Positions 1,459 through 51,003 of a stretch of DNA of 54,104 nt are shown piece by piece (within the stretch, counting starts at the first letter, position 1; every line of letters begins with the position of its first letter). Under the pieces are notes generated by a model that ran no database searches, was not told the DNA's origin, and was given only the letters and a program-made list of their open reading frames with translations. The DNA is taken from contig JALJEE010002719.1 in the NCBI GenBank assembly GCA_023231475.1, positions 1-54,104 of the forward strand. The letters are read 5' to 3'. The DNA is from Seison nebaliae. Taxonomy: Eukaryota. A program made the position numbers and the translations under genes.

Positions 1459-2329
1459 ATGAGTGAAAAGAACATAAATTTCTTTATAACTCCTGATGAA
1501 TATGACGATGAATTTCGATTGAGGTTCAGTATGGAAAATGTGGATCTTTCATTTGCCAATGCATTAAGACGAATAATGATTTCCGAAGTGCCAGTGATGG
1601 CGTTCGATTGGGTGAAGATTGAGAGGAATTCGACCGTTATGTTCGACGAATTTATTTCTCATCGTATCGGATTAGTTCCATTATATTGTGATGATGTTAT
1701 TGATGATTACATTAATCCGAAAGAATGTATATGTGAAGATTTCTGTTCCAAATGTAGTGTGAAATATTTGTTAGATGTGACAGGTCGTTCCAACGACCGA
1801 ACTTTAGTAACAACGAATGATTTCATCGCTGATCCAACTGGTACATCGGTGAAACCGTTAACTGGTCAATTGATTAATATTATTAAGAAGATCTCTCCCA
1901 GTGATGTCAGTAAATCTGAAAATGATATTGTCATTATGAAATTAGCGAAAGGACAACAACTCAAATTCTCTTGTTATGCAGTTCGGGGCGTAGGGAAAGA
2001 ACATGCCAAATTCAATGCGACAGCAGCTGTCGAATTCGAATATGATCCAGATAACGAATTACGACATACGACATTCGAGAAACCTGAAGATTGGCCAGCA
2101 TCAAAATACTCTTCAAAATTATCTCAATATTTAGGTTAGAAATGATGAAGAAAAAAAAATAAATTTCATTCATTTTCCTTTTATAGAGGAGGCTCCATAT
2201 AATCCGTTTAAGAAACCGAACAAATTCTTTTTTACAGTCGAATCAACAGGAGCTTTATTGCCCGGATCTATTTTGAAAAGTTCATTGAAAGTTCTCTTAC
2301 ACAAACTCGAATCATTGAAGTCTTTGTAA
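1459..2329 (+). CDS. POLR2C: RNA polymerase II subunit RPB3; 2 exons, intron 2135-2186
   Basis: Motifs ANALRRIMISEVP, DEFISHRIGLVPL, Zn site CICEDFCSKCSV, GKEHAKF and EYDPDNELRHT. After the GTTAGA..TAG intron the frame continues EEAPYNPFKKPNKFFFTVESTGAL. Confidence 0.96.
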
Positions 2330-2611
2330 GAGATTGCTTATTATTTTTTCAATCAAAAAGAAAATTGTTTTAAAGTTTTCAATTGTTTCTACTATAACAA
2401 TACTAAATTTCCTAAGGAATGATTCTGTAAAAAAAAAGAGGGAAATTCACGTCGAAATATTTTCTTATTCGAAATGAGAAAAGAAGAAATCTCATTTGGA
2501 TTTGAAATAAACTTTTTATTTTTTCTAATAAATTTTCTTTGATTTTTTTTTGTTAAAAATTTCCATTTCAAAACTAAAATTTTTTTCTTTTGTACATCAC
2601 AAAAGAAGAAA

Positions 2612-3775
2612 ATGGCTGAAAGCTTATTTGATGAATCGATGAGCTTAGAGAATATTAGCATCATTTCGGATGGACCGGATTCCGATTACAGTTCATATGG
2701 AAGAGAATTGAGAATTCGACACACGTCCTCATCAAATCAGAATGATAATCATATGATTGACAATGATTTACTGAATGACAATAACAATAATAACTTTAAT
2801 TTTCTTAGGAATAATTCACGTGGAATGGACATCATTTTTTATGTAGCTACAGCGATTACTTTGCAGTTTAGCATCCTTTTACTTTATTGTTCATTTTGGA
2901 TGATCTATTCGACTGAATCGATAGTTGTCGTTTTCTTATCGACATTAGATGAAGATTTTGGAAATATTCGTTTTACAGGTGCTGCAAGACTAGTACTCTT
3001 TTTAGGTAGTCTATTATTCTTCTTTGCCGTTTCGGGACTATGTTTAATTCAACAGAGGAATTACTGTCTCTTCTTCCAAGATGTCAAAGGAGCCGTGTCT
3101 CGAACTTATTTCTTTAAAATAATTTTTTCTCTTCTCGGAGTAGCTGTGTTCATTCTCGAAATAGTCTTGATGGCAATGTTAATAGAGAATCGTAGTTTAA
3201 CTCAATCTTTCCTTATGAAATATTTGGATAAACAAAAATATAATAGAGAGAAGAAGTTCTTTGAACCGAACGACCAGAATAATATCAATCGTTTTATAAG
3301 AGATAACGTTTCTAGTTCACAATTTCATGTCATTGAAAATACTTTCGGTTGTTGCGGTTTAAATGGAGTTGAGGATTATTATTCAAAGGAACTATCTACA
3401 ATCAGTCTACCACGAACTTGTTTGAATGTAGTGAAGAATATGGGCGGCAATTTCAATACTCTCACTTTCGACGATTATCAATTAATCAATTCATCTGTCG
3501 TCTCTGAACCCATAAACGATCAATCATCTTTCATTAACTTCATTAATCGGAGAGCAGGTAAAATACAAACAATGTGCGATAATAATATTCGAGAAGTGGA
3601 ATCTATACAACAAACGGTCCCCAACATTCCAATTGGTTGTCGACATATTTTACCTGAATATTTCCGAACAAGATTCACTTCTATGTTATCTATGAATATC
3701 TCCGCCGTTCTCATTACCATCTCCTATATCATCATAAGTTTCATGTTTTTAGTTACATCGAAAAAGTTAATTTAA
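2612..3775 (+). CDS. Tetraspanin-family protein with enlarged extracellular loop, intronless
   Basis: Three hydrophobic helices, then a large loop with GCCGLNGVEDY, PRTC and a terminal GC, then a fourth TM helix. Confidence 0.8.
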   Translation: MAESLFDESMSLENISIISDGPDSDYSSYGRELRIRHTSSSNQNDNHMIDNDLLNDNNNNNFNFLRNNSRGMDIIFYVATAITLQFSILLLYCSFWMIYSTESIVVVFLSTLDEDFGNIRFTGAARLVLFLGSLLFFFAVSGLCLIQQRNYCLFFQDVKGAVSRTYFFKIIFSLLGVAVFILEIVLMAMLIENRSLTQSFLMKYLDKQKYNREKKFFEPNDQNNINRFIRDNVSSSQFHVIENTFGCCGLNGVEDYYSKELSTISLPRTCLNVVKNMGGNFNTLTFDDYQLINSSVVSEPINDQSSFINFINRRAGKIQTMCDNNIREVESIQQTVPNIPIGCRHILPEYFRTRFTSMLSMNISAVLITISYIIISFMFLVTSKKLI

Positions 3776-4206: not shown

Positions 4207-4674
4207 ATGGCATTGTCTCACAGAAATGTTAAACATTTCCCTACTTTTATTAAACTTTCATTAATTTTTTCAGTTACGATTAGCACCAGAAGTGAATAGA
4301 ATTCTTTTTGTTAAGAATCTTCCCTATAAACTATCGGAAGAAGATTTGTACAGTATATTTGGTCGATTTGGAGGAATTCGACAAATTCGAATGTTGGTGA
4401 GTTCTATTAAAGTTTTAACTAATTTTCTGTTCGATTTAGTGGAATTACGCAGGGAACTATGGGAACTGCTTATGTAGTTTACAATGATATTTATGATGCG
4501 AAGAATGCATGTGAGAAATTGTCTGGTTTCAGTGTTGGTAATCGTTATCTGGTCGTCGCATATTATCAACCGCAGAAGACACAGAGGCGAATCGATCTGA
4601 AAAGGAAAGAAATGGACATGGAGAAGATTCGGAAAACATATTACACTGGAAACGCTAGTCAAGACAAAACTTGA
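4207..4674 (+). CDS. SF3B6: Splicing factor 3B subunit 6 (p14); introns 4228-4273 and 4393-4439
   Basis: Spliced product [26 protein letters not shown]...[51 protein letters not shown] matches the SF3B14 RRM. Confidence 0.96.
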
Positions 4675-4818: not shown

Positions 4819-4900
4819 GACGAGGTGGCCGAGTGGTTAAGGCGTTGGACTGCTAATCCAATGGGCTCTGCCCGCGTGGGTTCGAATCCCATCCTCGTCG
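4819..4900 (+). tRNA. tRNA-Ser(GCT)
   Basis: GACGAGGTGGCCGAGTGGTTAAGGCGTTGGACTGCTAATCCAATGGGCTCTGCCCGCGTGGGTTCGAATCCCATCCTCGTCG; GCT anticodon, long variable arm, T-run terminator downstream. Confidence 0.97.
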
Positions 4901-7627: not shown

Positions 7628-8448
7628 ATGAATCTGAGTATTATCGGAATTATTCTATTATTAAACCGAATGAAATCAATGAAGAGCTACACTTTCTGGA
7701 AATTAAGTAGTGCGGCAATTCACTACGACGATGAACAACTATTGAAATATTTTATAAAATGTTCGTTCTGTGAATTATGTACGGGAGTGGCGGTTAGCAT
7801 TTACCAATCTTCAACGAAATATGCACTTCTTGATGACAAATATGAAGATAAGCTAATCAATATTTCAGTTGTGTTCCAAAAAATTCGTTAGTGTTATATT
7901 AAAATTGTCTATATAACATTGAACTAACAGCAACTGGCTTACGGAAGAAAGTGGTTAGAGCGACAAATGTTTTAAACTCAAATGTGAAATTTACTCTTGG
8001 TTTTATTCAATTAAGTGACATTTCTCCTCAACTAACTGAAATTGATTATAGAAATGGATGGGCATATTTTCATTCCTTTTACCATGGTAATGATCTATTA
8101 TATTTTTTAACGAAATTAGTTCCCTCGCTAAAATTGATAGTGAGCATCCAGGTCATGGTAATGAGATCTTATGAACTAATGAATTATTATGCGTCTGCTC
8201 GAATAATTTCTTTACAATCAAATCGTGAATCATATAGAATTCAATTTAACGGTACAACGAGTACTACAACATTCCCTCTTGGTAATTCTTTAATAGAATG
8301 TCACATGGACGAACATCGAATTCCGGCGAATGGTCAACCATTCACAGTAAGTGAAGGTGTTGGTTTTTGGGGGAACTGTTTCACTGTTCTCGGGAAAGTC
8401 CCTATGGATTTTAAAGTTCTAAATTTGAGATTTGATTTAACTGTCTAA
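7628..8448 (+). CDS. Secreted divergent fibrinogen-related-domain protein, paralogue 2; intron 7887-7930
   Basis: Hydrophobic N-terminus. VVFQK, DYRNGW...YHGNDLLYFLT, SNRESYRIQF, GNSL, ANGQPFT and GFWGNC follow the FReD motif order (VIQRR, DYKxGFG..WLGNExIHxLT, YRL, GDSL, HNGxxFST, GWWxxxC). Confidence 0.65.
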
Positions 8449-10769: not shown

Positions 10770-11590
10770 ATGAATTTCAGAATTATAGGAATTATTATGT
10801 TATTAAATCGAATGATATTGACGGAGCGGTACACTTTCTTGAAAATCAGCGATGCGGCAATTACCTTCCACGATGAACGACTATTGAAATATTTTATAAA
10901 ATGTTCTTTTTGTGAATTTTGTACTGGAGTGAGTATTATCAATTACCAATCAACAACGAAATATACACTTCTTGATGAAAAATATGAAGATAAGTTGAAC
11001 AATATATCAATTGTATTCCAAAGACCTAGTTAGTGTTATATTATAATTAAGTATATAAAGATGAATTAATAGCAAAGGATCTACAGTGGAAAGTGGATAA
11101 AACAAGAAAGATTTTAGAATCACATGAGGAATTTGTTCTTGGTTTTATCGAATATGATGATGTTACTCCCAATCTAACTGAAAATGATTATAGAAAAGGC
11201 TTTGTAAACTTTGAATCACATTATCATGGTAATGAACTGTTATACTTTTTAACAAAAATTTTTCCGTCACTAAGATTGACGGTGGAAATCGCAGGAAAGA
11301 TACGTAGAGCTGTTATAACGAAGTATGTGTCCGCTAAGATACTTTCTTTAAAATCAAACCGCGAATCATATAGAATTCAATTTGACAGTGAAACGAGTTA
11401 TACACAACTCCCTCGTGGTAGTTCTTTAATGAAATGTAACTTTGACGAAGATCGAATTGCGGCGAATGGTCAACCCTTCACAGTAACTGAAGGTGTTGGT
11501 TTTTGGGGGAACTGCTTCACTTTCAGCTATCCCGGAAGTAGTGTAACGACAATCACTATTCAATATTTTTCTTTGGTATTGAGAATGTAA
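10770..11590 (+). CDS. Secreted divergent fibrinogen-related-domain protein, paralogue 3; intron 11029-11072
   Basis: Colinear with 7628-8448: same length and intron position, and shared LLKYFIKCSFCExCTGV, YHGNxLLYFLTK, SNRESYRIQF and ANGQPFTVxEGVGFWGNCFT. Confidence 0.7.
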
Positions 11591-12597: not shown

Positions 12598-12730
12598 AAA
12601 AAATGATCTGTCACACTTTTTGAACAGCATTTCTAACATTCTAATAAGTAATGAAGAAAAACAAAAATATATAAATCAAAATTAATTGATAATCAAAGAT
12701 TAATAATATCTCTTTTACTTACTGTTTGAT

Positions 12731-15481
12731 TCATCGTCGTCTCTTCCAAACCGAAGAACCTGTCTTCGGTTGTGTGGCCCTTCTTTATCTGAAATATCTC
12801 GTCTCGACTGTTTCGATCCAGACACCGACACTATCCCATGTTCCCGTATCGTATTTCGTCAATGACTTCAGTTCCTCCCATAGTGGTCGATTCTGGTTTT
12901 CATTTATCCAAGGAATAAATCGGAAACCGGTATACCAGTCATACGTTCTCATTGTTCCGGAGATAATCGTTTGTATTTCAGGATAAAATTCAATTCAACT
13001 GCATATCTGCAGGTCCATCGAAGAGGAAAGAAGGATTTAACCACATCCATTCCTTTCATCGTAATCCACAATCGTTGAGGAGTATTCCGCCAATTCCTTT
13101 GCTGACACAATGCATTTATCGCAAACAACATTTCTGGAATATATCGTGAACTTATCCGTATACTAGGTCGAATCAAATCTTTAGTGTAACTAGTAGAAAA
13201 AGCAGCTGTTGACCATCCTACTCGTTCTTCTTCACGAGTATTCCCGTATTTTGCCGCACATGAGAAATTTCCTAGGACAATTCCAAAATTCGTAGCCAAG
13301 CGAAAAATTTAGCTGCTCCAAACATCATCTGCACAGCAGACACAATTGTATGATGGAATACTGCGGCCCATTCCGAAGCATAATCTAATATTTTATTCCC
13401 GTCCATTCCATTATTAAAAGGAGGACATCCCAAAGAGAAGATTTGTGAAGCCCAATTCATATGTTCCATCATACATGTCCAAATTGCAGACATTATCCAC
13501 GCCGTCAATCGATCTGACTATTTGAAGTACGCATCATCGAAAAAAGACAAAGTATTATTTCCTCCATCCTTATCTCTTCCATTCAATGCCACCCGATTGA
13601 AGTCGAATCTCGTAACATTCCATTCCAAATTGAATAGTCCATATCCCACGCCGACTAGAGCACCATTCAATACCAACAATCTTAAAAGTTGTCCATAATC
13701 ATATTTAACGAATGCATTCCATTCGTCTTCGATATTCAAATTTTCCATTAACATCTCCATTATCGCCGGGATCAGACGGAAGAGAAAATTATAATCGTGA
13801 GGTTTCGTTCGGACCACGTTGTAAGTGGGAATTTCATACGGGAGAATCCATCTATTCCAATTCCTTCCATGAGAATTTCATTTCAAGAATAAAGAGGAGT
13901 CCACCATACAACCGCTTCCGGGATTCGATACGCTCGATGATCCTGCGGTATCTCCGTAACTAATCCAGTTGTGATCTCCTCGACATCAAGATCATTGTCA
14001 AAATGAATATTTCGTTCCGTTTTGGCATGATAAGGAATGTCAACCTGCTCTTCATCATTCGCATTCTGATTCGAATGTCGCTTATTCATAACCGAATTAT
14101 TCTTCTTGACATTTGGTTACGATTGTGTGGCGTTGGGAGCATCATTCTGATCTCCTTGTTCCATTTCTGTGGTTGTTGTGTTATTGTTCTTTCGCTTGTT
14201 GATATTAGTTCCTTGGTCCGTGACTGATTTCTTATGGATCGGGCCCATTGCGACAAACGTGTTATACCTTCTCTTCTCTAATTTTAGTGCCTGAGTATTA
14301 CCTGGGATGTTACTCTTCTCATGTTCCGGGATATTAATGAAACTTATATTGTCGTTATCTACTCGTCGCAGGATGGTCGCTCGTTATATAGACTCTATAT
14401 CATTGATTGGTGTTTCTTCTACTTCTGATTCTTTTACATCGATTTTTGGACCAAAGAATCCATATACTTCGTTTTTGATCTTCTTACTTGAAACATCCAA
14501 AAAGATACCGATTCTACAGCTAAAATGCAATCACTCTTCTCTTTTCGGGCTATTGCCAATTTTTGCATATATAAGAAAATAAGAGCACCACATGGAAGAG
14601 GAAGTACAGTATTGCGAGAGGGACATGTCTCTTCGCCCATAAAGACGATTGCCATCGGAATCTCAACATGTGCGATTCGTGATATTCGAGGAGCGACATC
14701 TTCATACTCCAACATAATTCCTTCTCTTGCGATACACGCCAAAATTGCCAATTCCATCATTACCAATTGTGATGAGTCCATTTATTTAAAAATAAAGACG
14801 AAAATTCCAAATGCGATTGCATCAGCCAAATCGCTTGCAAAACCATTCGCCGTCTTCACTAACTACTTCGCATTTCTCGCCATCACATTCTTCGTCCTGA
14901 ATCGCGATTTTGATTGTTTTGCAAATTCTACAGTGGCTGAGAAACACATCAACTTTTCATACAGATATGAGTTAAGGAACCGTTGACTCTGCATGAAGAA
15001 ACTTTTCGACAGGACATTTGCATCTGGAAACGATATATGCAGATATTTCACTGCCGCATGGATTCACTGCCTCACTCGGGGTTGGATTCCAAAATATTGC
15101 GTTGATTTCATCGTTCGAGATTTTCATCGTTGGAGTGTGCACGACAAACGGTTTATCCGCTGTTTGACACCAAGCCCGGAAATTTGCCACAATTGGAAAG
15201 TCCCTAAATCGCTGACGAGAGACCCTAGTTATAATGCAACCATCTTGTTTAACTGTTCCGAAATCGATGAATGCAACGATGTAGCGAATGGATCATAGAT
15301 GAACACTCATTTCCCAGACATCGGGAACTTTTGATCGGGTACTCTATAACTTATCGACGATAAGTATCCAGAATCTGGATTCCAGATGCTTCTGGATTGC
15401 ATCTGAGTCGAATTTTTCCATGCGATCATATGAAATTATAGTGTCTTGAGACACTGGCGGAGTCGCATTATTCTCCGTCAT
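12731..15481 (-). pseudogene. Decayed long intronless coding sequence (~900 codons) of unknown, probably mobile-element or viral, origin
   Basis: GC content is visibly higher than in the flanks. Minus-strand ORF fragments (14972-15190, 14863-15051, 14434-14781, 13883-14089, 13518-13817, 13272-13508, 12949-13299) are joined by isolated in-frame stops (e.g. TAG at 13518-13520) and frameshifts. Confidence 0.65.
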
Positions 15482-15921: not shown

Positions 15922-16438
15922 GCTAATCCAATCCTATCTCTACTATCCTACTTTGAACAAGTGAGGGAATATCTCGATCGTTCTGTTTGGAAGACTTACA
16001 AACGAAGGACCCACATAGTTAGACACATAATGAGATTGTTTCTGTTGATTAGTTTCATCGGAGGAAATTCATTTAGAGATTCTCATTAACAATATTTGCC
16101 ATACGAGATTGGAAAATAACGAAACAGGATCTTCATGCTCTTCTTCAATATTCTCAGATGAACCAGGATCGTCCCCATTCTCAATATCATTATTATGTAT
16201 AATAAAATAATAATTAAAAGTAAAAGTTAAAAATAATAAAAAGGCATTTGCTATCAGATTCAATACGATCTTGATGACTATAATATTAAAAGATGTATTA
16301 TTTAGTTAGTAGTAGTATTAGTTAGATATTTATTTAGTTAAGAAACTGGAAATTAATTCAGGAGTATGTGAGAGAACATCTGCCTCCACATTTAGAGATT
16401 CTGTTGAATTCTCCGACTATATAATCAAAATTGGAGAG

Positions 16439-18229
16439 ATGTTGATGCAAATATTTTCCATTTTACTTTCAATGAATTACTTTCACTTTCTATTTTCGCT
16501 TTACTTCGTTTCCCATGTGTTTTGTGTCGAAATCTCTCATTCAGACTCCCAATGTTATTAAAATTAAATTATTCAAATTTTAAATTTTTATTCCACCACT
16601 AATAGTTCATATAACTGATGATGATGCTAATTCTGATATAATCATAGGAATTGCTGTTAAGTTTTATTGTCCAGTTTACAAGAATATGGATATCGATTTA
16701 AAATTGTATGGAATCTTATCTCTCGGTAATGAAACGTCGACAACTTTCGATTATCGAATTTTTATGAAAGAAGATGAAAATGGATGTACAACCAATACGG
16801 AATATGTGGTTTTAATGAATTATATTTTAATAATTAATTGTCATTTATTTATATAGATAGGCACATTTACAACTACAATCCCAACCAATTGGATAGTGGA
16901 TCATGAAACATTTTTGAATTCAGATATGTCTGAATATATTTTCGATTTTCCCCTCACTCTGACAATAGACGAAATCAACAAAAAACAAATTTCATATGAT
17001 AATTTCAATCCGTTTATTATAGAAACAGTTAGAATTGATAAAACAGGAATTTTTCATTTTTCTTTTGCCATTAGTCGACAGTTTTGGTGAGGCATGACGA
17101 ACATGTTTTTCTTTTTAGTCTTCCAAATTTGCGCAATAATGCTTGGACCAAATTCGAATCGACGACATATGTAGATTTCGGTTATATCAATTTTTTTCAA
17201 ATATAAATTTATTAAATATTTATTCTTATGTTTTAGTTAAAAATAATTCTTTTCAATTACATCAATGGACAACGGTTTATTTGAAAGCAATCTACAAAAC
17301 GAATTGTAACGATTCATATACCAATTTTAAAATTGAATGGGATAGTGAATTCTCGATGAGTCAGTCGCTTTCACTTCGTGAGATAAAACCGCGATTATGT
17401 CAATCGTCATCATTATTTCTAATTCCATCCGACATCATTGAAGATATCGATAAATATTCGATTTCTAATTTCGACGATAAAGAATTGTCATCGGTTAATT
17501 TTTAGTACTACAAATATATTTATTTATAAAATTTTATTTCCATTTAGACAACAATAACTTTAATGAATTCATCGAACGATTATGTCGACATGATTTCTTA
17601 TACTTCATATCAGACAGGTAGTTTCATTCTGATTCCTGGAAGTAAATTAATGAAAAAAGCACGTTTAAATTTATTCATAATTTATAACCATATAAGTTTA
17701 ATTATCAATTAATTCAGATGATTCCATTTCAAATAATTACGTAGAAATCGATTATTATAGTCCATTCAAACCTCCACAATTTAACGGAAATAAAGTGCAC
17801 AAAAGTCAAAGAGAGAATGGCACTATTTTCGTCAATCTACCTCGCAATGCCGACTGGAATACAAATTATTTAACTAATGACATAATTCCAGTTAATTTTC
17901 TTCATTATAAATATGATTTAATTATATGTTTATTAATAAAATTGTAGATTGATCAACAACAAACTGATATTATGTTAAATAACTCGAGTTATTTTGAAAC
18001 TAATCCAATTTCATTTAATCGAACGTTGACGAGAAGCATGAAAGATATGGAGATTACCGATTATATGAACTCTGTTTGGAATAACAAAAAATTAATTTTG
18101 GAAGTATGCGTTTCACTAATGATAATTTGTGTGGCATGTTTCTGGTGGAAGAGTAATCAATTACAACGAATTGGAACGAAATTATCAACAGAAATCAGAA
18201 CAATGTCTTTAAAAATTAGTTCAAGCTAA
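16439..18229 (+). CDS. Uncharacterised type I membrane protein, 8 exons
   Basis: Signal-like N-terminus (MLMQIFSILLSMNYFHFLFSLYFVSHVFC). The frame stays open across seven GTT..AG introns. C-terminal TM LILEVCVSLMIICVACFWW; several NxS/T sites. The start codon is uncertain. Confidence 0.7.
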
Positions 18230-18595
18230 TGAATGTTATAAATCTTTCTCGAATTAACTCACATAAAATTGTTGTTCTATTCATATTTTCACTCGTTTTC
18301 AATTGATATCTGTCATATCTTTTTGTACGACTTTCTTTATTCTTTTTAATAGTTAACTAAATATATTTACAAGAATTATTATTTATTCATTTCAACTAAT
18401 CTTGGTCGAATTAATCAACTGTTGAAAAATGTTTAAAAACTCATAAAAATTATTGATATAATAATTATGAACTTTTTATAAGAGAAGAGGCCGATTTCTG
18501 AAGAGATTCATGAAAATTAAATTGATGTATTTTCCCATTTTATTGATCGTTAATGAAGTGGTGATATTTTAAAGTTTTAGCGGAATTCAAAGAGA

Positions 18596-20047: not shown

Positions 20048-20367
20048 TTCTTATTTTTCATTTATTTCCATGTTAATAATTTACCTTAATAATTTTCACT
20101 TTTTTTTTGAAAATTTCATTAATTTCACACGAAGCATTTTCCCGATCATCCATTTTCAGAATTGTTGTGATGGCTTCTAATCAATAATTCTTTTGTCTAA
20201 CATCTCTAACGACATTTCAACAAATGTGCACAATTTATTTTTTGTTTCATTAATAATTTCTTCTTTTCCACTTTTTTAAGTTTGACAGATAAATAATAAA
20301 AAAAATTCCCAATTTTTTACTTCGTTTCACACAAAATCTCAACAACAAACATTCTCGATTAAGACAT

Positions 20368-20769
20368 ATGGATTTCTTCTTTATACTCAAATGTCTCTTC
20401 ATTTCAATCATTTGGGGCAGTAGCAATCCAGCTATCAGTTTTAGCAGTCGTCAAACGAATTTAGAAGATGGAAGTGCAACGATATTTCAACAATTAAGAC
20501 TTCTCTTTTCTAATCCATTATATGTCATCAGTATTCTATTCAATTCGAGTGCATCCTTTCTTTATTACGCATTAATTAGTCGGTCAGCAAGTGATTTATC
20601 TTTAGCATCACCAATCATTAATTCGCTGACCACATTCTTCACTTGTATGGCAGGAACGACGGTATTTCGAGAACAATTGAATTTTAATCCGAAAAATATT
20701 TCCGGCGCTTTTCTCATATTTTTCGGCTCTTATCTATGTCTCACAGCCACAGCTATTAGAGATACATAA
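20368..20769 (+). CDS. TMEM234: Transmembrane protein 234 homolog (DMT/EamA-like)
   Basis: IIWGSSNPAI, NPLYVISILFNSSASFLYY and DLSLASPIINSLTTFFT; four TM helices in 133 aa. Confidence 0.85.
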   Translation: MDFFFILKCLFISIIWGSSNPAISFSSRQTNLEDGSATIFQQLRLLFSNPLYVISILFNSSASFLYYALISRSASDLSLASPIINSLTTFFTCMAGTTVFREQLNFNPKNISGAFLIFFGSYLCLTATAIRDT

Positions 20770-21040
20770 ATTTTTACTAAATAAATTTTAAAATTAATTG
20801 TAAGAAAATTTGTTACGAAGGAGAAAAACATTGAAAATTTTTTATTTGTATTTCAGTTCTCACATTCTATTTCATTCGCTAACGATGAAAGTTCTGTTTC
20901 GTATGTAAATGAAAAATTAATCCATTCTTCTTTCAACTTTTCTTATTTTTTGACTGTGTACTTATTTTCAGTTTCCCTAATATTTTGGTGATAAATTATC
21001 ATCAAATCAAAATATTTCTCTTTCAAACTCATCTACCAAT

Positions 21041-23253: not shown

Positions 23254-23354
23254 AAAATATAAAAAGCGATTTTTAATTTCTACAATATTTTATATTTGCC
23301 ATTTGATTTGAAGAAAAAGGGTAAGAAAAAGAATAAATAAAAATATTCCATATT

Positions 23355-33400: not shown

Positions 33401-35138
33401 ATTCATTAACAGACAATGATGAATGTGAATAAATGTAAAGAGGATTGGAAAGAAGTTTTAGATGATCCTACAACACTACAACCATTCATCAAATTGAAAC
33501 AACTGGTAGTGAAAGGTGTTCCGATATCGGAACGTTTTAAAATTTGGAAATATTTAGGTCAACAATATCAATTGAGAGAGAAAAAGAGAAATTATAAGAA
33601 TCCTCGTTTAAGTCGAATTTCTATCGGTGATATACCGAAAAATATAGAAAGAACAGAATTCTTTCATGAATATGATTTGAATGAAAATTATAAATCTCTA
33701 CTCAATGAATTAACTAATCATCAACATGGAATTCTGATTGATTTAGGTTTCATCAAATTTAGCTCTTTATTTTACTATAAAAATAATTGTTTGAAGGAAG
33801 AACATTTCCTGATCACGATTATTTTCGAGATGAGTTAGGAGAAGGACAATTGGCAATGTTCAATATTTTGAAGGCGTATTCCATTGCCGATAATGAAGTT
33901 GGTTATTGTCAAGGATTGTCTTATATCGTAGGATTTTTATTGATGCATGTTAGTTTGGAAATAATAAAAAGTTTTAATAAAAATTCTTTAGTGTCAAGAA
34001 GAAGAAGAATGTTTCAATTTATTCAATCATCTCATGGTGAATATGAATCTACGATTTAATTATATTAACGACTTACAAGGACTTCAAGTTTTCAAATTGA
34101 AACTTTCATTATTTTATTTAATTATTTTAATTCTGAATTTGTTTCTAATTTTAATTGTTAAAATTAAGAAATGTTTCTATAGATTAGCAAGAATCTTATC
34201 CGAATATTCTCAAGATCTTCTACGACATCTTCTTTCTCTCGATGTCTCACTAAAATTGTTCGCAACGCCTTGGATCATTTGTTTATATGCAGGTAAATTC
34301 CCGTTACAATTCGCAGCGCGATTTTTCGGTTTTTCTTTTGTCCATCAAAATTTTATTAACTTTTTCAGATCTCTTATTTCTTTATGGAGAGGAGGCGATT
34401 TATCGAATGAGTACAGCATTATTATTGTCGCAACAATTAGATATAATTTCCATTAAATCGTTTGAATCGATGGCGAATTTTTTCCAAACAGAATTAGTTG
34501 AATGTGCCGAATTTGATGTGGAGAATATAGTGCAACAAGCCACATCATATGATTTGAGTGAGGTGTTACAAAAGATAGAAAATGAATTGAATGACAATGC
34601 ATCAATTGGACAATATGAGACAGATAAACAAGAAGAATTTATGAGACAAGAAAGTGAAGAAAAGAAACAAGAAGAATTATTATCGAAATATGAACAATTG
34701 GAAACGGAAAATGTTACACTCAAATCCTACAATGAAGTATTGAGTGATTTCAACAATAGAAACAAGAAGGAAATTCAAAAGTTGAAACATTTGCTGGCGA
34801 ATAAGAATTCACAAATTCTTCAACTGAAAAGTACTGAAACGAAAGATGCGATACGAATAGCTGCGCTAGAGAATTCGTTGAAGAAACTCATGAAACGATT
34901 GAAGTCACATGATGAGTTCGATATCTATTCTTTAGATTTCGACGTTAATCATATCGATAATCAATCGTTAGGTGTTAGTGTTAGTGATAGTGATAGTGAA
35001 TTAACATCAACAAGACGTACTATAAATTATACGAAACATCATTCGCAAGATAAGATGAGAAATCGACAATCTTTACCTCTTTTCACATTGAAACCGTTAA
35101 GCTTAATGAAAATGAATATTGAAAATAGCAACCACTAA
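30469..35138 (+). CDS. Rab-GAP of the TBC1D1/TBC1D4 (AS160/pollux) type: PTB-like domains, TBC domain and coiled coil; ~14 exons
   Basis: PTB-like FEVKYLGK and YIFRCQ; TBC motifs [47 protein letters not shown] and FATPW...[14 protein letters not shown]. Thirteen GTT..AG introns restore the frame. The start codon is uncertain. Confidence 0.88.
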
Positions 35139-35324
35139 AATAGTTTTGAATAATATTTTTTATTTTTGGTTTTTAAAATTTATAAAAAAATATTAAATGT
35201 TCTATTTAAGAATGAGCACCAGCTTCGTGTATTTTTCGAGAAAATAATTTAGGAAATCATATTTACATTTTCTAATATTTTCTTCGATTATTTTGATAGA
35301 TGTAAAATTGACGAATTTTCTTTT

Positions 35325-37666
35325 TTATTTCGTGTTCGTCATTTGAAATTTGCGTTTGTGAGTAAATGCGAAACATGTCAATAATTTTGAAAATGCTGTT
35401 CGGAAATCACGATTGAAAACGGTATAAAGGAATGGATTTATTGCCGAATTGACATATCCCAACCAAGTGATGAATTCAAACACTGAATTTGACGCTAAAG
35501 GACATTCGTATGATTTCAATAAGCCTTTCTCTTGTAATTCTGATAATATTGATTGACATAATGGTCCATAGAGGTAATAAGCGAAAAAGGGAAACCAACA
35601 TAATACAAAGACACCAACAATGATCCCTAACATTCTTGCTGCTCTTCTTTCCTTCTTCACCGATATCTTCTCTTTTCTATGCAAAGTTTTCGAGAGGTTT
35701 TGTGGATTGACAGTTGGTCGAAATTGTTGAGTTCGCGATTCGTCATTACCAATCTCATCACTCATTGGAGGTGCGATTGTTGAGTCGTTGGAATCTGATC
35801 TAAATTTATCAGATGATCCTCGTTTAAAATCGAAACGTATTCGCTTTTGAAATATACTTTTCCTGTGTCGAATCTCTTTTTTTGGTCCGTTTGCCAAATC
35901 ATCTTTCTCTTCTACTGATTCTTTCACATTATTCCCACTCGTTCTCATCACTTGATCATCAATTAGTCCGTTGGTTGTTGTTATCGTTGTTGTGGTATTG
36001 GCTGAATGTCGTTGATTGTCTGATAGTTTCAATTTATTTTTATTTGCCACCACAACGTCATTGGAACGTCGATTATATTTTCCACATCTTTCCGATCCGA
36101 ATTGTGTCAATGAATATTTCTTTGGTAAAGTTTCGGAACTTTGAGAATAAGTTAATTTATTAAATATTTTCATTCCATTCGTTAAATTACTTCCATGTAA
36201 CGTGTAACGACAATGTGAAACTTTCTTGGCGATTGTCCATCGATGCCAATTACTTATTCGACTTCGATGACTTTTCATACTGTCACTCTTTCCATCATCT
36301 AATTTTGCTGCAGCATTCGCTAATTGTTTCGCTTGAGCATGACGACGTTTTAAACGTTTTCTCGTTGCTCGAAATATTCGATAGTAGACGAAGAAAATAA
36401 GAATAACTGGAACATAAAAACTACCACACGCTGAATAAATGACATAACTCAATTTATCGGAAACAGTACAAATAAATTCGAAATCGATATACGAATATTC
36501 TTGTAAAGGAAATCGGGTGAAATTGATTTTATGATAATTCTTATAATCATCCATCTGTTGTCGAGCTGCGATGGTGGAGGTGAATTCATGTGAATGATTG
36601 AATAATTGATCAGTTGAGATGTTGTAATGAGATTTAAGAATAATTCGATAGAATGAATCATTCAATGACGAATTATTCAACATTTGAGGTGAGATTATAA
36701 ATTTCTGCTTTTCATGATTTCTCTCATTCATCGAATCATTCGATAAAATTGTTATAGATAAATCGGTTTCATTAAATTTACGAAAATTCTCATATTCTTC
36801 AATGAGACGTGTTGCATTTGCAAGAAATTCTGATTGTCCCCAACCGAAAACCGGAGGGACGGATACTAATGCCGAAATGATCCAAACACCCAAAATCATA
36901 AGCGTCACATTAAAACTCGTTCGACGTTTCGCATATTTCAATGGATCAGTAATGGCCCAATAACGATCTAATGCGATGATACATAAGTTCAAGATGGACG
37001 ATGTACATAACATGACGTCGAAAGTGAGAAAAGCTTTACAAAACTTTACACCGAGTTGATATGGCCATAAGTAGTTGGTGAATTTTAGCATAATATGAAA
37101 TGGAATAACAAGTAGTGCTACAGCCAAATCGGCGGAAGCTAATGATATGATAAACATATTAGCAACCGAATTTTTCAACGGACGATGAGTCAACACACTT
37201 AATATTACTAGAATATTTCCAATAAGACAACTCAACAATATCGCACCACAACCGGTAACTGTAGAATAGAATGTAAAATAAGAGAATGGAAATAAAAAAG
37301 GCAACTTTGTGCGATGAAGAATAATTTTTTCAAATTTTTATTATCTTTTTTTGAATCAACGTTATCGGAATTTGATTGAATTGTGAAAGAATTATCAATG
37401 GGATATCTTTGTTTTTGATATTGTTGATATTCATATAATCGTACCAACGTCCTGTCAATCGCATAATTCGACGAATTAACATTCGATAAGAAGACGATGG
37501 CGGGAAGAAGATTCTCATACGAATAATTTGAATCCGAAATTTTCGGTATTTGATAAGTATGAATAATTGGTTTCAACGGTAACTGATTCTCGGGAGTTGA
37601 GAATGTGCATCGATAGAATGTTATTAGAAAGAATAGTTGAAGTTCTCGAACGACCAACCATACCAT
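35325..37666 (-). CDS. Biogenic amine GPCR (tyramine/alpha2-adrenergic/5-HT1-like, Gi-type architecture); intron 37259-37305
   Basis: GNILVILSV, SLASADL, DVMLCTSSILNLCIIALDRYWAIT (amine-binding D3.32), YSACGSFYVP, long ICL3, KERRAARMLGII, CWFPFF and WLGYVNSAINPFLY; short C-tail. The GTT intron joins ORF 37232-37666 to ORF 35325-37304. Confidence 0.92.
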
Positions 37667-42356: not shown

Positions 42357-45300
42357 TTATTCAAATCTGGGTTCGAGATTGGTACGCAACTCACTTACAT
42401 TAAATAGGATACGATAATCAGGAGGGAGATGCAATAAGAAATCCTCTTCCGATCCAACAGCACCTACATCAAATGTGTTCCCACATGTTTCCATCAATTG
42501 GAATGTTAGGTGGATTAGAGACGCATCATTTGAAATATCCTTTGTGGTTACTTGGAAAATGGATTTTTTTTCTTGTAAAATGTTTATCGGTCTCAATGCC
42601 GAATGACGTATTTTCCTTACGGTATGCATTGGGATATCATCGAAAGAATCAATTTTGAGATCATTGGCAAAATGTGATTCCATAAATATACTTTTAGCAA
42701 AGAACGAAAAAGAAGAGAATGTTCCATCAGTTTGATATTCATCGTTTACTCTTGGTGATTGATCATATAACTTCGTATTCATTTGATCATAACGTCGTAA
42801 GTGGCGTAATACATCATCAACATCATAAGTTCGAATATTTTGTAAAATATTTAGAATACTAAAGAGAATTAGTGAAGAAATAATTATTAATGTCCCTAAA
42901 ATAATAATTACTAAAATAATTCCGTCTTTTTACTAAAACAATCCACGAAATAAAATGAAACATTATTTCTTAATATTATTAAACAAAAAGTTAGTTAATT
43001 AGAAAAATCAATAAAACTTAAGTGAGAAAAGAGAAGAAGATTATGAATACCTAAATGGCTTACCTAAATGCATTTGTATTAAACAAATCTTTAGTGGAAA
43101 TATTGGTCAAACCAGTTTTCAACATCTTCTCAGGGAACATATAAGAGAAAATTACTACTCCTATCTCACAATAATCGAGAGGCATAACACATTCGGTTGG
43201 TAAATTATCGGTTGATAACCATTCACCATTTGTGGCACGTGCAGCGTGAAATGACAGAGGCATTACACGTTGACTAGACTCATCTATGGCAATTAATTTG
43301 ATCGGAATATCACAAAGGATTATTCCACTTACATGAGTCGCCTAAAAAAGAGTCGAATATGAATTTGAAAATTTACAAATTCAGAAATTTTCAAAAAGAA
43401 AAGAATAATTAGAAAGATTAGAACTAAACTCGTATCATGCTAAGAAGGTAAATGGGAATCTTTTCCTTTCTGGGATTATTTAACGAATAATGATAAAGAG
43501 TATGAACGATTTTATCAAATTTCCAAATTCTGATATGGAGCGAATTTGGAGGATCTCCTACAAGTTAAGTCGATGAAAACGAGAAGGTCATTCTACGAAA
43601 TTCATTAATCAACCTGATGTGATATTCTTAGTTAGGTAAGGAATAATTGTAAAGAAGGTTTGTGGATCTAAACCATTCAGAGTCGAATTATAAATTTCGT
43701 AGAATTTATCAAATTTCTCAATAGCATTCGCATTCGTTGAATAATGGACGATGAGAGTAGAGGAGCTTGTATGGAAAAGCAGAACATAATATTCATCACC
43801 AATGGCAGATAATGGATTCACTAAAGATATAGGTACCGGAATGAATTCCGTCAGAGTCATATCCTCAATCATTTCTTTGATCTGTAAATATTTACATTAA
43901 ATTGAATAATAAACATTTTGTTATCTAACATGAGGAAATATTCCATGTAAGATTCTTTCGTCTCTAAATTGGAAATTTGTGTAAGGTAAAGTTCCATTAA
44001 TATTATCCACATCATCATCAATATTTTGATTATCTAAAAAATTATCAAAATTTATATCGTAAAGAAACTTTAACTCTTATGTTTCAAACGTCTCTTCAAT
44101 TTTCTCTTAGATTTTATTACAATCTCTTTGCCTCTCTTCATGAACGATTTCTTCTCCTTCTTTGCTAATTTTATTTCTTTTTTTTCTTTATTTCCAAGTT
44201 CTTTTTTAGATGTTTTTTCAGTTTCATTAATTGGAATTTCAGATTTGACTTTTTTCCTCTGAAATTTATTTTTTACCTTCTTTTTCGATTGTTCCACAAA
44301 ATTTTTACCACGTTCCTTTATAGACTTACTTTTTTCTTCCGTTTCATTATCGGATTTTTTCTTTTTCTTTCTCACAACTAATCAAAATAGTTCAAAAATT
44401 AACATACAAAAAAACATAAATCAAAAATTAACATCGTTTGCCCCTAGAATGGACAAGTTTTTCGTTAAAATTTGGTTGAATTTCTAAATAATAAAATATT
44501 GAGAAAATGTTATGAAAATAACAATATTAACCGATATCGAATTGACAATTATTAACTCCATTATCATTCAACAAATATATTAATTCGTTGAATCGTATAA
44601 GAATTTGGTCGTTGCTATTCATAAAATAATTCATCCGATTAATTAATCTTTTCGTTCTTCTCAAATAATCTGTCATATCATCCGAATATCTGAATGATTG
44701 ACTGTGTGATGTGACGAGGAGAATTTCCAATAAATTCAAATATGAGAATTCGATATCAGAATTATCCCAATGGAAATGTTCACCATTCGACTGTTCACAA
44801 TCATTTATATCATCATCTTTTAATGTTCTCAATGAAAATGGGAGAATGTCTTTCAAAGAAAATCGAATAAATTTCACTGATACATCGAAATAATAATTTA
44901 GTTCTTTACAAATTATATAAATTTGTTTCAACATTTCGTTTGTCTCAAATTCCTCTTCCTTTAAACGTAAAATCAATTAATATCTTTTTTTTATAAAATT
45001 AAACTTCTATTATTTGTTCCAAATGTATAATTATGTTATTCAATTCTAATGTTGGTACAACATTAAGTTCGTTCCCGAAGTTATCATGAAGATCTAAATG
45101 GAACTGGATTTTTCCTAACCAATTCTGGTACATATTTGTCGTATAAATACTAATATTATCCAGGAAATCCACAAATGGAAAATAGAAAAATTTCTTCCAC
45201 ATGGTGAAAAATAATTGCACATTATTTTCAACTGCTTTACTTGAGAATAAAATTCCTTCCAGAGAAACTTTCTCGAAATTACTCGTATAATTATCAAGAT

Positions 45301-46114
45301 AAAATGGATATTGAGATTGATGAGATAATCGATAAGAATAATTTAAATGAACATATCCTTCCTTCAAAGATCTTATTGCATTCAATCGTATTTCATGATA
45401 AACTGATGAATTATACATTCTTATGACTTCTGATGATAATTTCGAATTCTTTGACATTCGTAAATCTTTAATGTCAAATATATTGAGATCAGTTCGATTA
45501 TTAATAAAATTCAAATATTCCTGAAATTCTAATGTTCCAAAATCATATTTTATTTGAAGAATGTTCCCTTGAATTGCTCTGAATGTTGATTGTTCGAATA
45601 CTTGTTTGATTAAAATTGAATTCAGTTCATAAATTCTTCTGACAGTTTTCAAAAAATTTCTCAGAAGTTTCGGCACAAAATCCATATCGAGGTTAATTTC
45701 GAAGTTCCTATTAAACATTTGAACGATGTAATGATGGGAATTCTGATATCGAAGATAATTCGTGAGACAATCACTTCGTTTTCTTTTCTTCAACTTTTTT
45801 AACATCAAATATGAAATCGATAAATCTTTCGCTTTTGTTATTCCAAACTTAAAATTCTCATAATTCTTCGTTTCTATTGCAAAATTCAGTAACTCATCAT
45901 TATTACGATGATCAACTTTGTGAATGGCCACGTGCAACATCTGCATTAACCTACAGGTTCCTTCATAGAATTGAGGAAGAAAAATTTCTTCGTTTTTCAT
46001 TGGGACATTTATGTTCTGGAATAGTTCAAACCGTTCACATAATCGTGATTCCGAAATTAAAAGGCACAAAGGCATTAACAATAAAGTCAATAATTTTTTA
46101 AGTAAAATTTGCAT
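42357..46114 (-). CDS. Large uncharacterised (~1000 aa) signal-peptide and C-terminal-TM protein with a Lys/Glu-rich internal exon; 9 exons
   Basis: ORFs 44999-46114, 44527-44976, 44070-44375, 43609-43872, 43060-43263 and 42357-42782 join in frame through eight GTT..AG introns plus small exons. No family was recognised. Confidence 0.6.
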
Positions 46115-46399: not shown

Positions 46400-47025
46400 A
46401 TTTATCGAATGTTAAGTGACAAAATTTTGATCCATTTTGAGGAACAAGAATGAATAAATTTTTATTAAAATCAAATCAACTTAAGAATTAATAAACCTTA
46501 TTCAAATTTCGGTTAGATATTGCTAAGCAACTCAATTACATTAAATAGAACACCATAATCATGAAATATATGCCATAAGAAATTATCTTCCGAAATCCAT
46601 ACTGCACCTACATCGAATGTATTACCACAGGTTTCCATCAATTGGAATATATAGAGTATAGGATGAATTAGAGAAGCGTCGTTCGAAAAAACTTTGGTGG
46701 TGACTTGGGAGACAAATTTCTTTTCTGGTAAAGTATTTATTGGTCTCAATGTTGATTCTTTTCTATGTACATCGGAATGTCAATTTTTCTAAATTTGCAC
46801 ATGTAATAGTATCTGCATTAACCTACAAGTTCCTTCATAAAATAGTGGAAAAGAAATCTCTTCATTAGTGCACAAAGGCATTACCACTAGGAAGAATAAT
46901 TATTTAACAAAACTGATGTTAAACGATTGACCAGAACTAAAAGCGCAAATTGGAAACTGAATAACATTTTAATTCATATGCATTTTATATAAAAATAATT
47001 GATAAAATGCTAATGAAACGATTAA
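46400..47025 (-). pseudogene. Internally deleted duplicate of the 42357-46114 gene
   Basis: 46440-46750 matches the last exon and 3' flank (FQLMETCGNTFDVGAV shared). 46810-47025 matches the first exon and upstream region (ATCTGCATTAACCTACA.GTTCCTTCATA; TAATTGATAAAATGCTAATGAAACGATT). Confidence 0.8.
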
Positions 47026-47225
47026 CGTCTTTATAAAATTGATCGCTTAAGCTTTACCTTTTTTTTTGATATAAAGACACGTCCATTAGGAAATTTATGA
47101 AGTTCTTTTATAAACTGAGCAAGTTTAAATTTTGGCTTAAAGTTCTATAATATAAATATAAGAAAATAAAAAAAAAAATTATTAAATTACTAATCAATTA
47201 TAAATTAAAATAGTTTCTCCATCAA

Positions 47226-47816
47226 ATGGCATATAATCACTTATCGTTTCTATTGATTTTTGTGGGACTTTATTCCCGATATGGTTATTGAATGATTTAT
47301 TTGAAAAAAAAATGAATTTTATTGAATATTTATCGATTTAAGAAACCATAAAAATTGGTACAACTATCAAATGTTATGAATGTCGTTATCCCGATCCTAA
47401 TTGTAAAGATCCGTTCGATACGGAGAAATATCAGTTGGTGGAATGTGGTCGAAATAGAACAAAGTGTATGAAATATATGTGGCAATGTTATTCCCAATCA
47501 TTCTCCATTAATTTCTCTTATTTATTCTCATAGTTAGTGCATTGGGTCCCGTTTATTACGCACGGCAATGTTCGGCCAATGTAGAAATTGGTCGAAAAGA
47601 TGGACGTGATTGTATTGAACGAGTCGGTTAGTTGATCGATTGTTTATTATTTACATTCTCCCCCAATCAATTATAGGTGATTTTGAAACGAAGTTATGGT
47701 TTTGTGGTTGTGATAATCGTGATGGTTGTAATGGCGTTGATAAGATAAACATTCCACTAAATTATCTCTTACGTCTCCTCCTTCCTATTCATTTATTCAA
47801 ACAATATATTTTATGA
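47226..47816 (+). CDS. Ly6/uPAR three-finger protein, quiver/sleepless-like; introns 47284-47342, 47487-47533, 47627-47676 (absent from the ORF track)
   Basis: Spliced product: signal peptide, IKCYECRYPDPNCKDPFD...ECGRNRTKCMKYMWQ|FSALGPVYYARQC...DCIERV|GDFETKLWFCGCDNRDGCNG, then a hydrophobic GPI-like tail. Confidence 0.88.
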
Positions 47817-48160: not shown

Positions 48161-48652
48161 ATGTTTTTGTTTTTATTTGTGAATTTTTGTGTTTTCCATT
48201 TCATCATCACATTTCCCAATTGGAAGACTTCAGATCATTCGATTTGTCGACCATGTCCACTTTGCGAAATGCCATTGATGCATCGTTCGAATAATTGTCT
48301 CCGATACGAATGGACATATTATACGAGACAATTGGAAATTCCTTATAGAAATATAAGTCTTTTAAATGATAATGATCGTTTATCGAAACGTCGAACAAAT
48401 CGACAAATGAAATCATCAACAAAGAATGCATTACATGTGGAATTTCAATATTTGACGAAACATCATCGACATGTGAGACGAAGTGTCTTCCTAAATAAAC
48501 CATCGATAATTCGATCGGTTATTGTCAAACCGAAAACGATCGATTTGGATGCGATAAGAATGAATGAAACTTTCCAAGAATCTCAATTGATTTTAGTGAA
48601 ATGTCCATGTTGTAAATATTGTGTGGAATGGAGTAAACGAAATATTGATTAG
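48161..48652 (+). CDS. Uncharacterised secreted Cys-rich protein
   Basis: Hydrophobic N-terminus; Cys clusters CRPCPLC...C and CPCCKYC separated by a basic linker with KRR and RHVRR sites. Confidence 0.55.
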   Translation: MFLFLFVNFCVFHFIITFPNWKTSDHSICRPCPLCEMPLMHRSNNCLRYEWTYYTRQLEIPYRNISLLNDNDRLSKRRTNRQMKSSTKNALHVEFQYLTKHHRHVRRSVFLNKPSIIRSVIVKPKTIDLDAIRMNETFQESQLILVKCPCCKYCVEWSKRNID

Positions 48653-49265
48653 AATGATGATAATTTACCTTTTGTAATTTCCTTTTTTCATTCATTTCAA
48701 AATAAAATGATTTTCTTTTTAAAATTAGATTTATTCAAGAATTAGAAGAGAGTGAGAAATAAAACAAAAAATATAAAAATTCATTGAATTCTTTCTGTAT
48801 TTCTTGTTTCTGTTGTGGAACGAGAATAATTCATTCGGATTCATCCACCAAACTCAACATAAGCTTAAACAGGTTGAGAATGAAACAAGTGGATTTAAAC
48901 TGATCATATCAATGATGTGTGAGAAAGAAAAGAGAAATCGATGGATTTTTTTTCCGATATAGTCTGATGATAATATATTGGAGAGAGGAAATATAAATAA
49001 TGGAATCCTGTCGATAGAATTCGAGAGAAATGATGATGAAAATGTTCGTTAACGATAAAAAAAATTTCAATTAAAACATAATTGAGAAAGATTTATACTC
49101 TTCCCTGTGTGAACGACGTTCGATTTTGTGAGAAATAATTTAATTTTAGTCAACGAAACAAATGGAACAGTATTCATAACAATATTAATACGAATAACAA
49201 GAATATTGAGAGATAAGATACAGATGATGAGTTATTAAATTAAAACATATTTTCTTCAACTCTTC

Positions 49266-51003
49266 TTATAATTCGGTTTTGGCACCTTCGCCTTCACTAT
49301 CGCTACCATCATCATCTTCACCTTCTGGAAGTGGTTCCTCTTCATCTTGCTCATCTTCTGGTTCCTCTTCAGCATTTCCTCCTCCAACTGCTCCATTCGA
49401 TTCAACAAATTTTGTCAAACCTTCCAATGTTCGTTCTCCATTGTACGCGATGATTTCATTCGTATCTTTAGCAACCAATCGAAGAGTTGGGAAAGATTTC
49501 ACTTTGACACTTGAAACTTCGTTTGTGGTCGAATCCATTTTGGCAATGACAACATCTTTCGAGTCCTTAAACTTCTCAGCCAATTGTTCCCAGATTGGTG
49601 CCAATGCTTTGCAGTGACCACACCATGGTGCATAAAATTCAATCATAACTGTCGTCTCTTTATTCATGGCAACTTCCTCGAAATTCTTTCCTACCAATAC
49701 CTACACAAATTTTTAAAATAATTTTTAAAATAATTTTCAAAATAATTTTAACTTTGACTGGTTTTGCATCCCAATCTTCTGGCACCTCATCAGAGAGAAG
49801 AGTTGGAGACAATTCTCCTTTCAAATAAGTATCGACGAATTTCTCGATTTCATCAAGAACAATTCCTTTGAATTCAGGTGCATATCGGCTCAAATCTTCT
49901 CCCACATTCACCAATCGGAGAGTTGGTGCGTCCGTTGCTTTCAATCCGAAGAATTCTAAGACACGTTCATTCTCAACATTATCTGTGTCAATAATCACGA
50001 AAAAGACCTTAAACAAATGAGAATGAAAAAAATGGAAGATCATTTAAAATGTTCAACTTTTCCTTTATATTTCTTAGCGACCGTTTTCAAACTATCCATT
50101 TGTTCTGAATAATCACTCGATTTCTTCGAAAGGAAGAAAAGAAGATGATCTTTAATTGGTCCACCGAAGATCTTTTGAGCAGTTTCTTCATTGAACTCAA
50201 CAACGAGTGGTAATCGATTTCCTTGAACATGAAGTGTAATACTTTCCAATGATAAATCATCAGTTAAAACTTCACGTCCCTCATCCATCTAAAAATGACA
50301 AATAAAAATTTAGTCGAATTTATCAATTCGAACTTTTCGGAAGACGATCACCGTATCTTTCTCCACATTAAGACTCTCGATCACATCTTTATCATTTGTC
50401 TTTCCAAATACAACATCTTCAAATTGATCAGCCAATTTCGTCAAATGATCGAACATATCATTCTTTTCTTCTTTGGAGATGGCCAAGACGAAACAATCAG
50501 ATTCGCCTTTCAATTTGTCGAATTGAGCGACAGTTGTCACTTCGGTGACTGGTGCACTCACTTTTCGTTGTAACCAGTTAACGATATCGTTAGCAGTTCG
50601 TCCACCTCGATATGCCGATGGTTCCTTTCCTCGGGCGAAGAATTTAAGTGTGGGATATCCAGAAATTTCGAATTTCTCTGCTAATGCCTTCTCGACAGTG
50701 GCATCAACTTTTCCTAATTTGACCTGAAGAGAAATTTTAAGAAATTAAAAAAAAATTATTTGAATTAACTTCTGATCCATTCTCTTCTAATTGTTTGGCA
50801 GCAGCAGCGTATTCCGGTGCCAATGCTTTGCAGTGACCACACCATGGGGCATAAAATTCAACGAGTATATGTTCATGATCTGCCATCGCTTTCTCGAAGT
50901 TGTCGTTCGTCAGAACTAACACACCTTCATCCTTTGTGATCTCATCGGTGAAGACACACGAGATGGATATGAAGGCGAAAAGGTAAAACAAATAATTTCT
51001 CAT
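49266..51003 (-). CDS. P4HB: Protein disulfide-isomerase (PDIA1); introns 50724-50769, 50289-50333, 50008-50057, 49701-49752
   Basis: Signal peptide, two [15 protein letters not shown] active sites, a-b-b'-a' order, [17 protein letters not shown], acidic tail and KTEL retention signal. Confidence 0.96.

Follow-up and report, generated by a model that had tools for sequence, protein, structure and literature searches.

A near-fixed GTT splice donor in a 54-kb contig of the rotifer Seison nebaliae

Donors of the major (U2-type) spliceosome follow the consensus GURAGU. They are divided into two classes, AG//GU and //GURAG (PMC11732430). A different donor is described for Entamoeba, where GUUUG occurs in 96.9–98.5% of introns, U1 carries ACAAAC and the U6 box is normal; a further variant of U1 is present in Mastigamoeba (Roy and Bowser, bioRxiv 10.1101/2022.06.08.495308). 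Atypical human donors at which U1 pairs in a shifted or bulged register make up about 1.5% of donors (Tan et al. 2016, PMC4856993), and a switch from A+4 to U+4 linked to METTL16 and SNRNP27K is described in Saccharomycotina (Parker et al. 2023, PMC10581693). Here, the splice donors of a 54,104-nucleotide (nt) contig of the marine seisonid rotifer Seison nebaliae (Rotifera; GenBank assembly GCA_023231475.1, contig JALJEE010002719.1), in the following called the window, were analysed after a sequence-only reading had reported that about 50 introns reconstructed there in 12 genes all begin with GTT.

As in Entamoeba, U+3 was near-fixed (54/55) in short U2-type GT-AG introns with a poor fit to canonical U1. 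Entamoeba, however, is a protist with few introns whose strict code fixes U+4 and G+5, whereas Seison, an animal in which a single gene of the window has as many as 13 introns, shows U+4 in 13/55 and G+5 in 13/55, prefers A+4 and tolerates a canonical donor. Ordinary U2-type donors are resembled in the GT-AG ends, the residual A+4 and G+5 and an intact SF3B6, but U takes the place of the purine at +3; because exonic AG preceded the donor in 5/55 and G+5 was as rare as stated, most Seison donors fit neither AG//GU nor //GURAG. The GUU start and the purines at +4 and +5 are shared with the shifted human sites, which are a small minority whereas nearly all donors are concerned in Seison, and G+6 is nearly absent in Seison. 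A donor change together with METTL16 scored as missing is shared with Saccharomycotina, but Seison keeps A+4 (33/55) and changes +3. Near-fixed U+3 donors are of a kind known from protists; no report of a GTT donor code in Seison, rotifers or any animal was found in a literature search that covered few subscription papers. The sequence-only reading knew of no lineage with obligatory U+3; Entamoeba is a precedent for U+3 donors.

Donor use in the window

The GTT donors are real and form a near-fixed U+3 donor code in an animal. Evidence was collected at 13 loci on both strands of this one 54-kb contig (Table 1).

Four deposited S. nebaliae proteins were used, SNEBB_005404 (RPB3), SNEBB_005420 (PDI), SNEBB_005412 (SLC17) and SNEBB_005415 (TBC1D1/4-like). 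They were mapped back exactly with any intron ends permitted, which gave a single GT-AG solution per junction, and 28/28 introns were GTT..AG (RPB3 3, PDI 4, SLC17 8, TBC1D1/4-like 13). These models are predictions, and the predictor was probably trained on the species' own motif.

Transcript gaps were taken from published GMAP alignments that place Trinity transcripts on an assembly of S. nebaliae (Mauer et al. 2021, PMC8351084, Supplement 2). At least 21 rows have coordinates fitting the window; all counts of such gaps hold among the rows listed. Of 15 distinct intron-sized gaps, 14 were GTT..AG and one was GTA..AG, against a background of 40.3% GTT among all GT sites in the window (p = 2.8e-5). 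Eight of the 15 gaps were unslidable and four, in PDI, overlap the deposited-model set. Three were absent from the prior parse (44432, 20829 and 37044), one of them a frameshifting gap in a GPCR exon, and even this apparent cryptic splicing uses a GTT donor. No gap patterns for SF3B6, SLC17 or TBC were present among these rows.

A curated list of 45 introns was taken from a GTT-only parse and is hence biased; 23/45 allow no frame-compatible non-GTT donor within 30 nt. A constrained parser that ignored the first six bases of each intron picked GTT at 44/50 junctions, with the caveats that 12/50 introns lay in its training genes, that it failed for RPB3 and Ly6 with the end coordinates supplied and that its GPCR intron was wrong. 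Among its six non-GTT calls, 43063 is real, 49758 and 33050 are contradicted by a transcript or a deposited model, and the other three lie at 16171, 16524 and 16806. An unconstrained whole-window parser over-called introns everywhere, with T at +3 at background level (206/546), and was dropped as uninformative.

The union set comprised 55 introns, 54 of them with GTT donors. It includes the donors at 16554 and 16809, which were our choice over GTG alternatives, as well as two doubtful RPB3 introns and the cryptic GPCR gap, and leaves out the first Kv intron (GTTAGA, 26246), which could not be fixed and was excluded from the counts. The exception to GTT is the minus-strand intron 43063–42859, which begins with GTAAGC; with that transcript-supported donor, preceded by AG, U+3 is near-fixed and not, as the sequence-only reading had proposed, obligatory. 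The hexamers which that reading quoted were present at all plus-strand sites checked (2135, 4228, 4393, 33747, 33949, 34088 and 34329), and the position at which its range ends on the minus strand, 50769, coincides with the donor of the first PDI intron, GTTAAT.

Homology profiles were built from 107 non-Seison PDIs and 19 non-Seison RPB3 sequences. In PDI the GTT junction was the best GY-AG join at 4/4 junctions, by 11 to 30 bits, and was at the top, or at most 0.5 bit below it, among more than 1000 motif-free joins. A few non-GT-AG joins outscored the RPB3 junction (by at most 2.4 bits) and one PDI junction (by 0.5 bits), so that homology alone does not pin these junctions to the base. In SF3B6 the exon boundary at human residues 50/51 requires the donor GTTGGT at 4393. 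Four bases past it, at 4397, lies a canonical GTGAGT, which is skipped and whose use would drop three amino acids. The alignment of SLC17 with VGLUT2/3 is gapless over junctions 2–8, and the last four TBC junctions match those of human TBC1D1/TBC1D4. Nearby GTA or GTG sites are not the true donors, an outcome set beforehand as contrary to the GTT claim; they were ruled out by homology, frame and transcript gaps. Eleven perfect GTRAGT hexamers on the sense strand of the genes were unused, and unused GTRAGT was found inside transcript-matched exon blocks at five sites (42394, 42398, 43332, 44329 and 50561). Exonic depletion on the sense strand was not seen for GTRAG (25 vs 25) or GTTA (86 vs 74).

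A local or technical bias, in which A+T pressure acts on an unconstrained +3 or gene prediction favours GTT while the genome elsewhere is more mixed, is very improbable. It could draw on the single contig, on a predictor that probably learned the motif and on the GTT-only origin of the 45-intron list. Intron bodies, however, are 45% T and 37% A, so that an unconstrained +3 would often be A, and pure A+T bias was rejected as the cause of GTT. The motif-independent transcript gaps, the junctions that permit GTT alone and the spread over 13 loci and both strands also argue against such a bias. GMAP writes a deletion when splice-site scores are low. At this locus 13/14 short gaps were entered as deletions and not as introns, and by hand count among the rows listed the same was found for 32/36 gaps of 40–99 nt on other contigs. 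The entries on other contigs likewise speak against a local effect and are an indirect hint of genome-wide extent, although acceptors could also explain them. Two sequencing runs over 16000–35999 behaved as DNA, and intron-like joints were not seen there.

Intron length had a median of 50 nt, and the termini were GT-AG in 55/55, with the acceptors TAG (32), AAG (12) and CAG (11). AAG acceptors lie for example at 21845, 22476, 33796 and 50008, and the pyrimidine tract was not clear beyond T at −5. No fixed-position branch-point motif was found in the last 22 nt of the introns, where A+T richness could mask a floating motif. Across the 55 introns, +3 was U in 54, +4 was A in 33 and U in 13, +5 was A in 25, G in 13 and U in 13, and +6 was U in 27, A in 20 and G in 3. 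In the 45 curated introns A+4 (28/45 vs an intron background of 0.37, p = 0.0009), G+5 (11/45 vs 0.07, p = 0.0001) and purines at +5 (34/45, p = 1.6e-5) were enriched, U+4 was depleted (10/45 vs an intron background of 0.45), and +6 was at background level. The free variation claimed for +4 to +6 is accordingly confined to +6, while the claimed lack of an exonic AG preference and the concentration of donor information in G1-U2-U3 were borne out. The lone GTA donor (43063) fits 4/5 flanking consensus positions, which just 3/54 GTT donors do. A+T content was 83% downstream of true donors vs 67% after 363 unused GTT sites. The donors are very information-poor, with little beyond GTT.

Candidate changes in the splicing machinery

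Spliceosome components were taken from the BUSCO table of Herlyn et al. 2025 (PMC12256650), which covers 25 syndermatan species, among the rows listed. SF3B1, SF3B3, SF3A3, PRPF6, PRPF3, Prp31, SLU7 and U2A' are scored there as Complete in Seison. SF3B6, a major-spliceosome protein, is intact in the window itself. As regards the U2-type class, GT-AG ends with removal from mRNA and major-spliceosome proteins were found, and a purine at +3 in 1/55. U12-type introns were rejected, RTATCCTT being present in none of the donors. ZMAT5 is a minor-spliceosome protein. It is scored as Missing in Seison and both acanthocephalans and is present in all 22 other rotifers (PMC12256650), which is a hint of a shared minor-spliceosome loss. 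No small nuclear RNA (snRNA) gene was found in the 54,104-nt window, which holds two tRNA genes, tRNA-Ile(AAT) at 477–550 (−) and tRNA-Ser(GCT) at 4819–4900 (+).

Duplex energies with U1 5' ends, computed by duplexfold with bulges permitted, were compared between the 55 donors and 966 unused GT sites. The canonical end did not separate the two (area under the curve, AUC, 0.502), an end with A at position 6 did (AUC 0.618, p = 0.0016), and an Entamoeba-type end was rejected (AUC 0.454). Among 16 variants tried at U1 positions 5–6, A6 alone gave the best pairing, and the A+4 and G+5 enrichment falls in the canonical U1 register. Because donor choice is not accounted for by pairing with canonical U1 and the information lies in G1-U2-U3, the change of machinery suggested by the sequence-only reading is a fair inference; the near-lack of GTA and GTG donors, together with the skipped perfect ones, would not be possible with unchanged machinery.

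We put the probability that U1 of S. nebaliae carries A at position 6 (ACUAAC) at about 0.5. Entamoeba, the one published fixed-U+3 lineage, supports this reading, because its U1 is compensatory while its U6 box is normal. The sixth base would have changed from pseudouridine to adenosine, with the predicted 5' end AUACUAACCUG, and its best match would be GUUAG in place of GUAAG. The core U1 helix would be formed by G+1, U+2, U+3 and often A+4, and the remaining information would come from intron definition, with introns of about 50 nt and 83% A+T. A donor without U+3 would function only where flanking pairs (−2, −1, +4 and +5) compensate, and the strong flanks of the lone GTA donor would fit such a compensated mismatch. 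At the U6 step, the ACAGA box could stay unchanged and accept U+3 through a wobble pair with its G44, an argument already made for Entamoeba. Donors would have been rewritten in place and not replaced, since the VGLUT and TBC1D1 introns here keep what we take to be ancestral intron positions.

Several points weigh against an altered U1. The A6 end was derived from the donors and not from a Seison U1 or U6 sequence, the energy test was built on the same donors and is partly circular, and an AUC of 0.62 is modest. G+5 (13/55) and U+6 (27/55) are weak for a U1-driven code, and the data come from a single window with one GTA exception. In Thecamonas, Micromonas and yeasts, donors shifted at +4 while U1 did not change (10.1101/2022.06.08.495308, PMC10581693). 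In addition, METTL16 is scored as Missing in Seison alone among the 25 species and as present or fragmented in the other 24 (PMC12256650), which points to a U6-stage change. When a metagenome was scanned, an A6 U1-like pattern matched once, on a 1.2-Mb contig and with no Rfam hit; the match is not a U1 and is neutral here.

A U6-stage or protein change is the main rival to U1 A6, although we consider it rather unlikely. Canonical U1 would be weakly used, and U+3 would be imposed later or by protein (at U6 transfer, by Prp8, or by diverged U1-C or LUC7); in the U6-stage form this would occur by a G44-U wobble or a changed ACAGA box, with U6 lacking N6-methyladenosine (m6A) through METTL16 loss. 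Besides METTL16, U5-40K is Missing in Seison and one other of the 25 species (PMC12256650), A/G+3 contacts U6 G44 weakly (PMC11732430), and cases in which donors changed while the snRNAs did not are on record and tied to METTL16/SNRNP27K (PMC10581693). METTL16 loss predicts U+4, however, which is depleted here, SNRNP27 is Complete in Seison, and with 356 BUSCO genes lacking in Seison a single 'Missing' carries little weight and may reflect divergence (PMC12256650).

Canonical U1 could also pair out of the usual register, shifted or with one U bulged, A+4 and a purine at +5 pairing with two pseudouridines, so that a minor human mode would be generalised, possibly with the assistance of a second U1 gene. 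Such a register has been validated in human sites (PMC4856993), it suits the +5 purines, and a bulge at U+2 raises the mean pairing from 5.6 to 5.9. Nevertheless it is improbable: it expects G+6, seen in 3/55, canonical U1 would still favour GTA and GTG, which are nearly absent as donors and skipped where present, and its AUC with bulges permitted is still 0.50.

At somewhat under even odds, the parts may all hold jointly: Seison would then be the first animal with a rewritten donor code, in which a U1 with ACUAAC reads GUU genome-wide, thousands of ancestral introns were converted in place and U6 works without METTL16 methylation.

Introns by gene and neighbouring features

Table 1. Introns and intron-like gaps in the window, with donors and evidence.
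Gene or feature	Positions and donors	Strand	Evidence or remark
RPB3 intron	2135–2186 GTTAGA	+	Deposited model; best of 4 GY-AG joins vs RPB3 profile
RPB3 extra introns	2280–2330 GTTCAT, 2375–2416 GTTTTC	+	Deposited model
SF3B6 introns	4228–4273 GTTAAA, 4393–4439 GTTGGT	+	Exons join gaplessly at human p14 residues 50/51
Unnamed gene (7628–8448) intron	7887–7930 GTTAGT	+	Donor-blind parse, frame only
Paralogue (10770–11590) intron	11029–11072 GTTAGT	+	Donor-blind parse, frame only
Unnamed membrane-protein gene, introns 1–4	16554 GTTATT, 16809 GTTTTA, 17028 GTTAGA, 17181 GTTATA	+	Parse/frame
Unnamed membrane-protein gene, introns 5–7	17494 GTTAAT, 17663 GTTTAA, 17891 GTTAAT	+	17891–17947 transcript-supported
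Gap in transcript antisense to TMEM234 3' end	20777–20829 GTTTTT..TAG	−	53 nt; transcript
SLC17/VGLUT introns 1–4	21203 GTTAAT, 21399 GTTAAT, 21575 GTTAGA, 21797 GTTAGA	+	Deposited model
SLC17/VGLUT introns 5–8	22133 GTTAAA, 22418 GTTCAT, 22605 GTTCGT, 22734 GTTATC (to 22783)	+	Deposited model
Kv channel introns	26710–26954 GTTACG, 27074–27180 GTTACT	+	GTT donors alone frame-compatible
TBC1D1/4-like introns 1–7	30730, 31138, 31403, 31549, 31822, 32417, 33059 (all GTT)	+	Deposited model
TBC1D1/4-like introns 8–13	33244, 33368, 33747, 33949, 34088, 34329 (to 34368) (all GTT)	+	Deposited model
GPCR intron	37305–37259 GTTGCC	−	Frame only
GPCR coding-exon gap	37044–36968 GTTTTG..TAG	−	77 nt; transcript, shifts frame
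1057-aa unnamed gene, introns	45004 GTTTAA, 44531 GTTAAT, 44432 GTTAAT, 44074 GTTAAA	−	Transcript-supported
1057-aa unnamed gene, further introns	43929 GTTAGA, 43613 GTTGAT, 43429 GTTTAG (to 43342)	−	Transcript-supported
Exceptional intron	42859–43063 GTAAGC, after exonic AG	−	205 nt; transcript-supported, frame stays open, also donor-blind pick
Ly6-type introns	47284–47342 GTTATT, 47487–47533 GTTATT, 47627–47676 GTTAGT	+	Joined, predicted to give one cysteine-patterned open frame
PDI introns	50769 GTTAAT, 50333 GTTCGA, 50057 GTTGAA, 49752 GTTAAA (to 49701)	−	Deposited model, profile, transcript

The two extra RPB3 introns clash with the C-terminus of the homologues and could be either over-calls or part of a minor isoform; over 2280–2416 (+) the deposited model removes the conserved C-terminus, and read-through yields a homologue-like end at 2328. 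The GPCR coding-exon gap is likely to be cryptic splicing, of the kind that low-information donors would invite.

The genes at 7628–8448 and 10770–11590 (+) are unnamed paralogues without a Pfam match, and each has a single intron, in the same position. A spliced transcript at 20590–20900 (−), with the intron 20829–20777, overlaps the TMEM234 3' end on the opposite strand. In the 1057-amino-acid (aa) gene, transcripts revealed a 51-nt exon (44433–44483, −) between two GTT introns, which the parse had missed, and the 48-nt intron 43929–43882 is kept in one isoform. A transcribed fragment at 46455–47027 (−) resembles the start (about 45950–46080) and the last exon (42357–42858) of this neighbouring gene and, by its sequence, looks like a chimeric duplicate. 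At 12700–15480 (−) a higher-GC stretch with broken reading frames resembles, by eye, a decayed transposon; among the rows listed, one transcript lies at 14189–14508, and no Pfam match was found in the four frames tested.

Significance for Seison and its relatives

To our knowledge, animals have been regarded as invariant both in the 5' end of U1 and in the purine that donors carry at +3. If nearly all donors of an animal rich in introns have U+3, the question arises by what route the machinery coevolves with its splice signals while thousands of sites change together. Aligners and predictors tuned to GTRAG would mis-score the S. nebaliae genome; the 13/14 short gaps that GMAP entered as deletions here are an instance. 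Information-poor donors are a natural test of intron definition, and the close relatives of Seison, the acanthocephalans, bdelloids and monogononts, make it a tractable case for ordering the steps.

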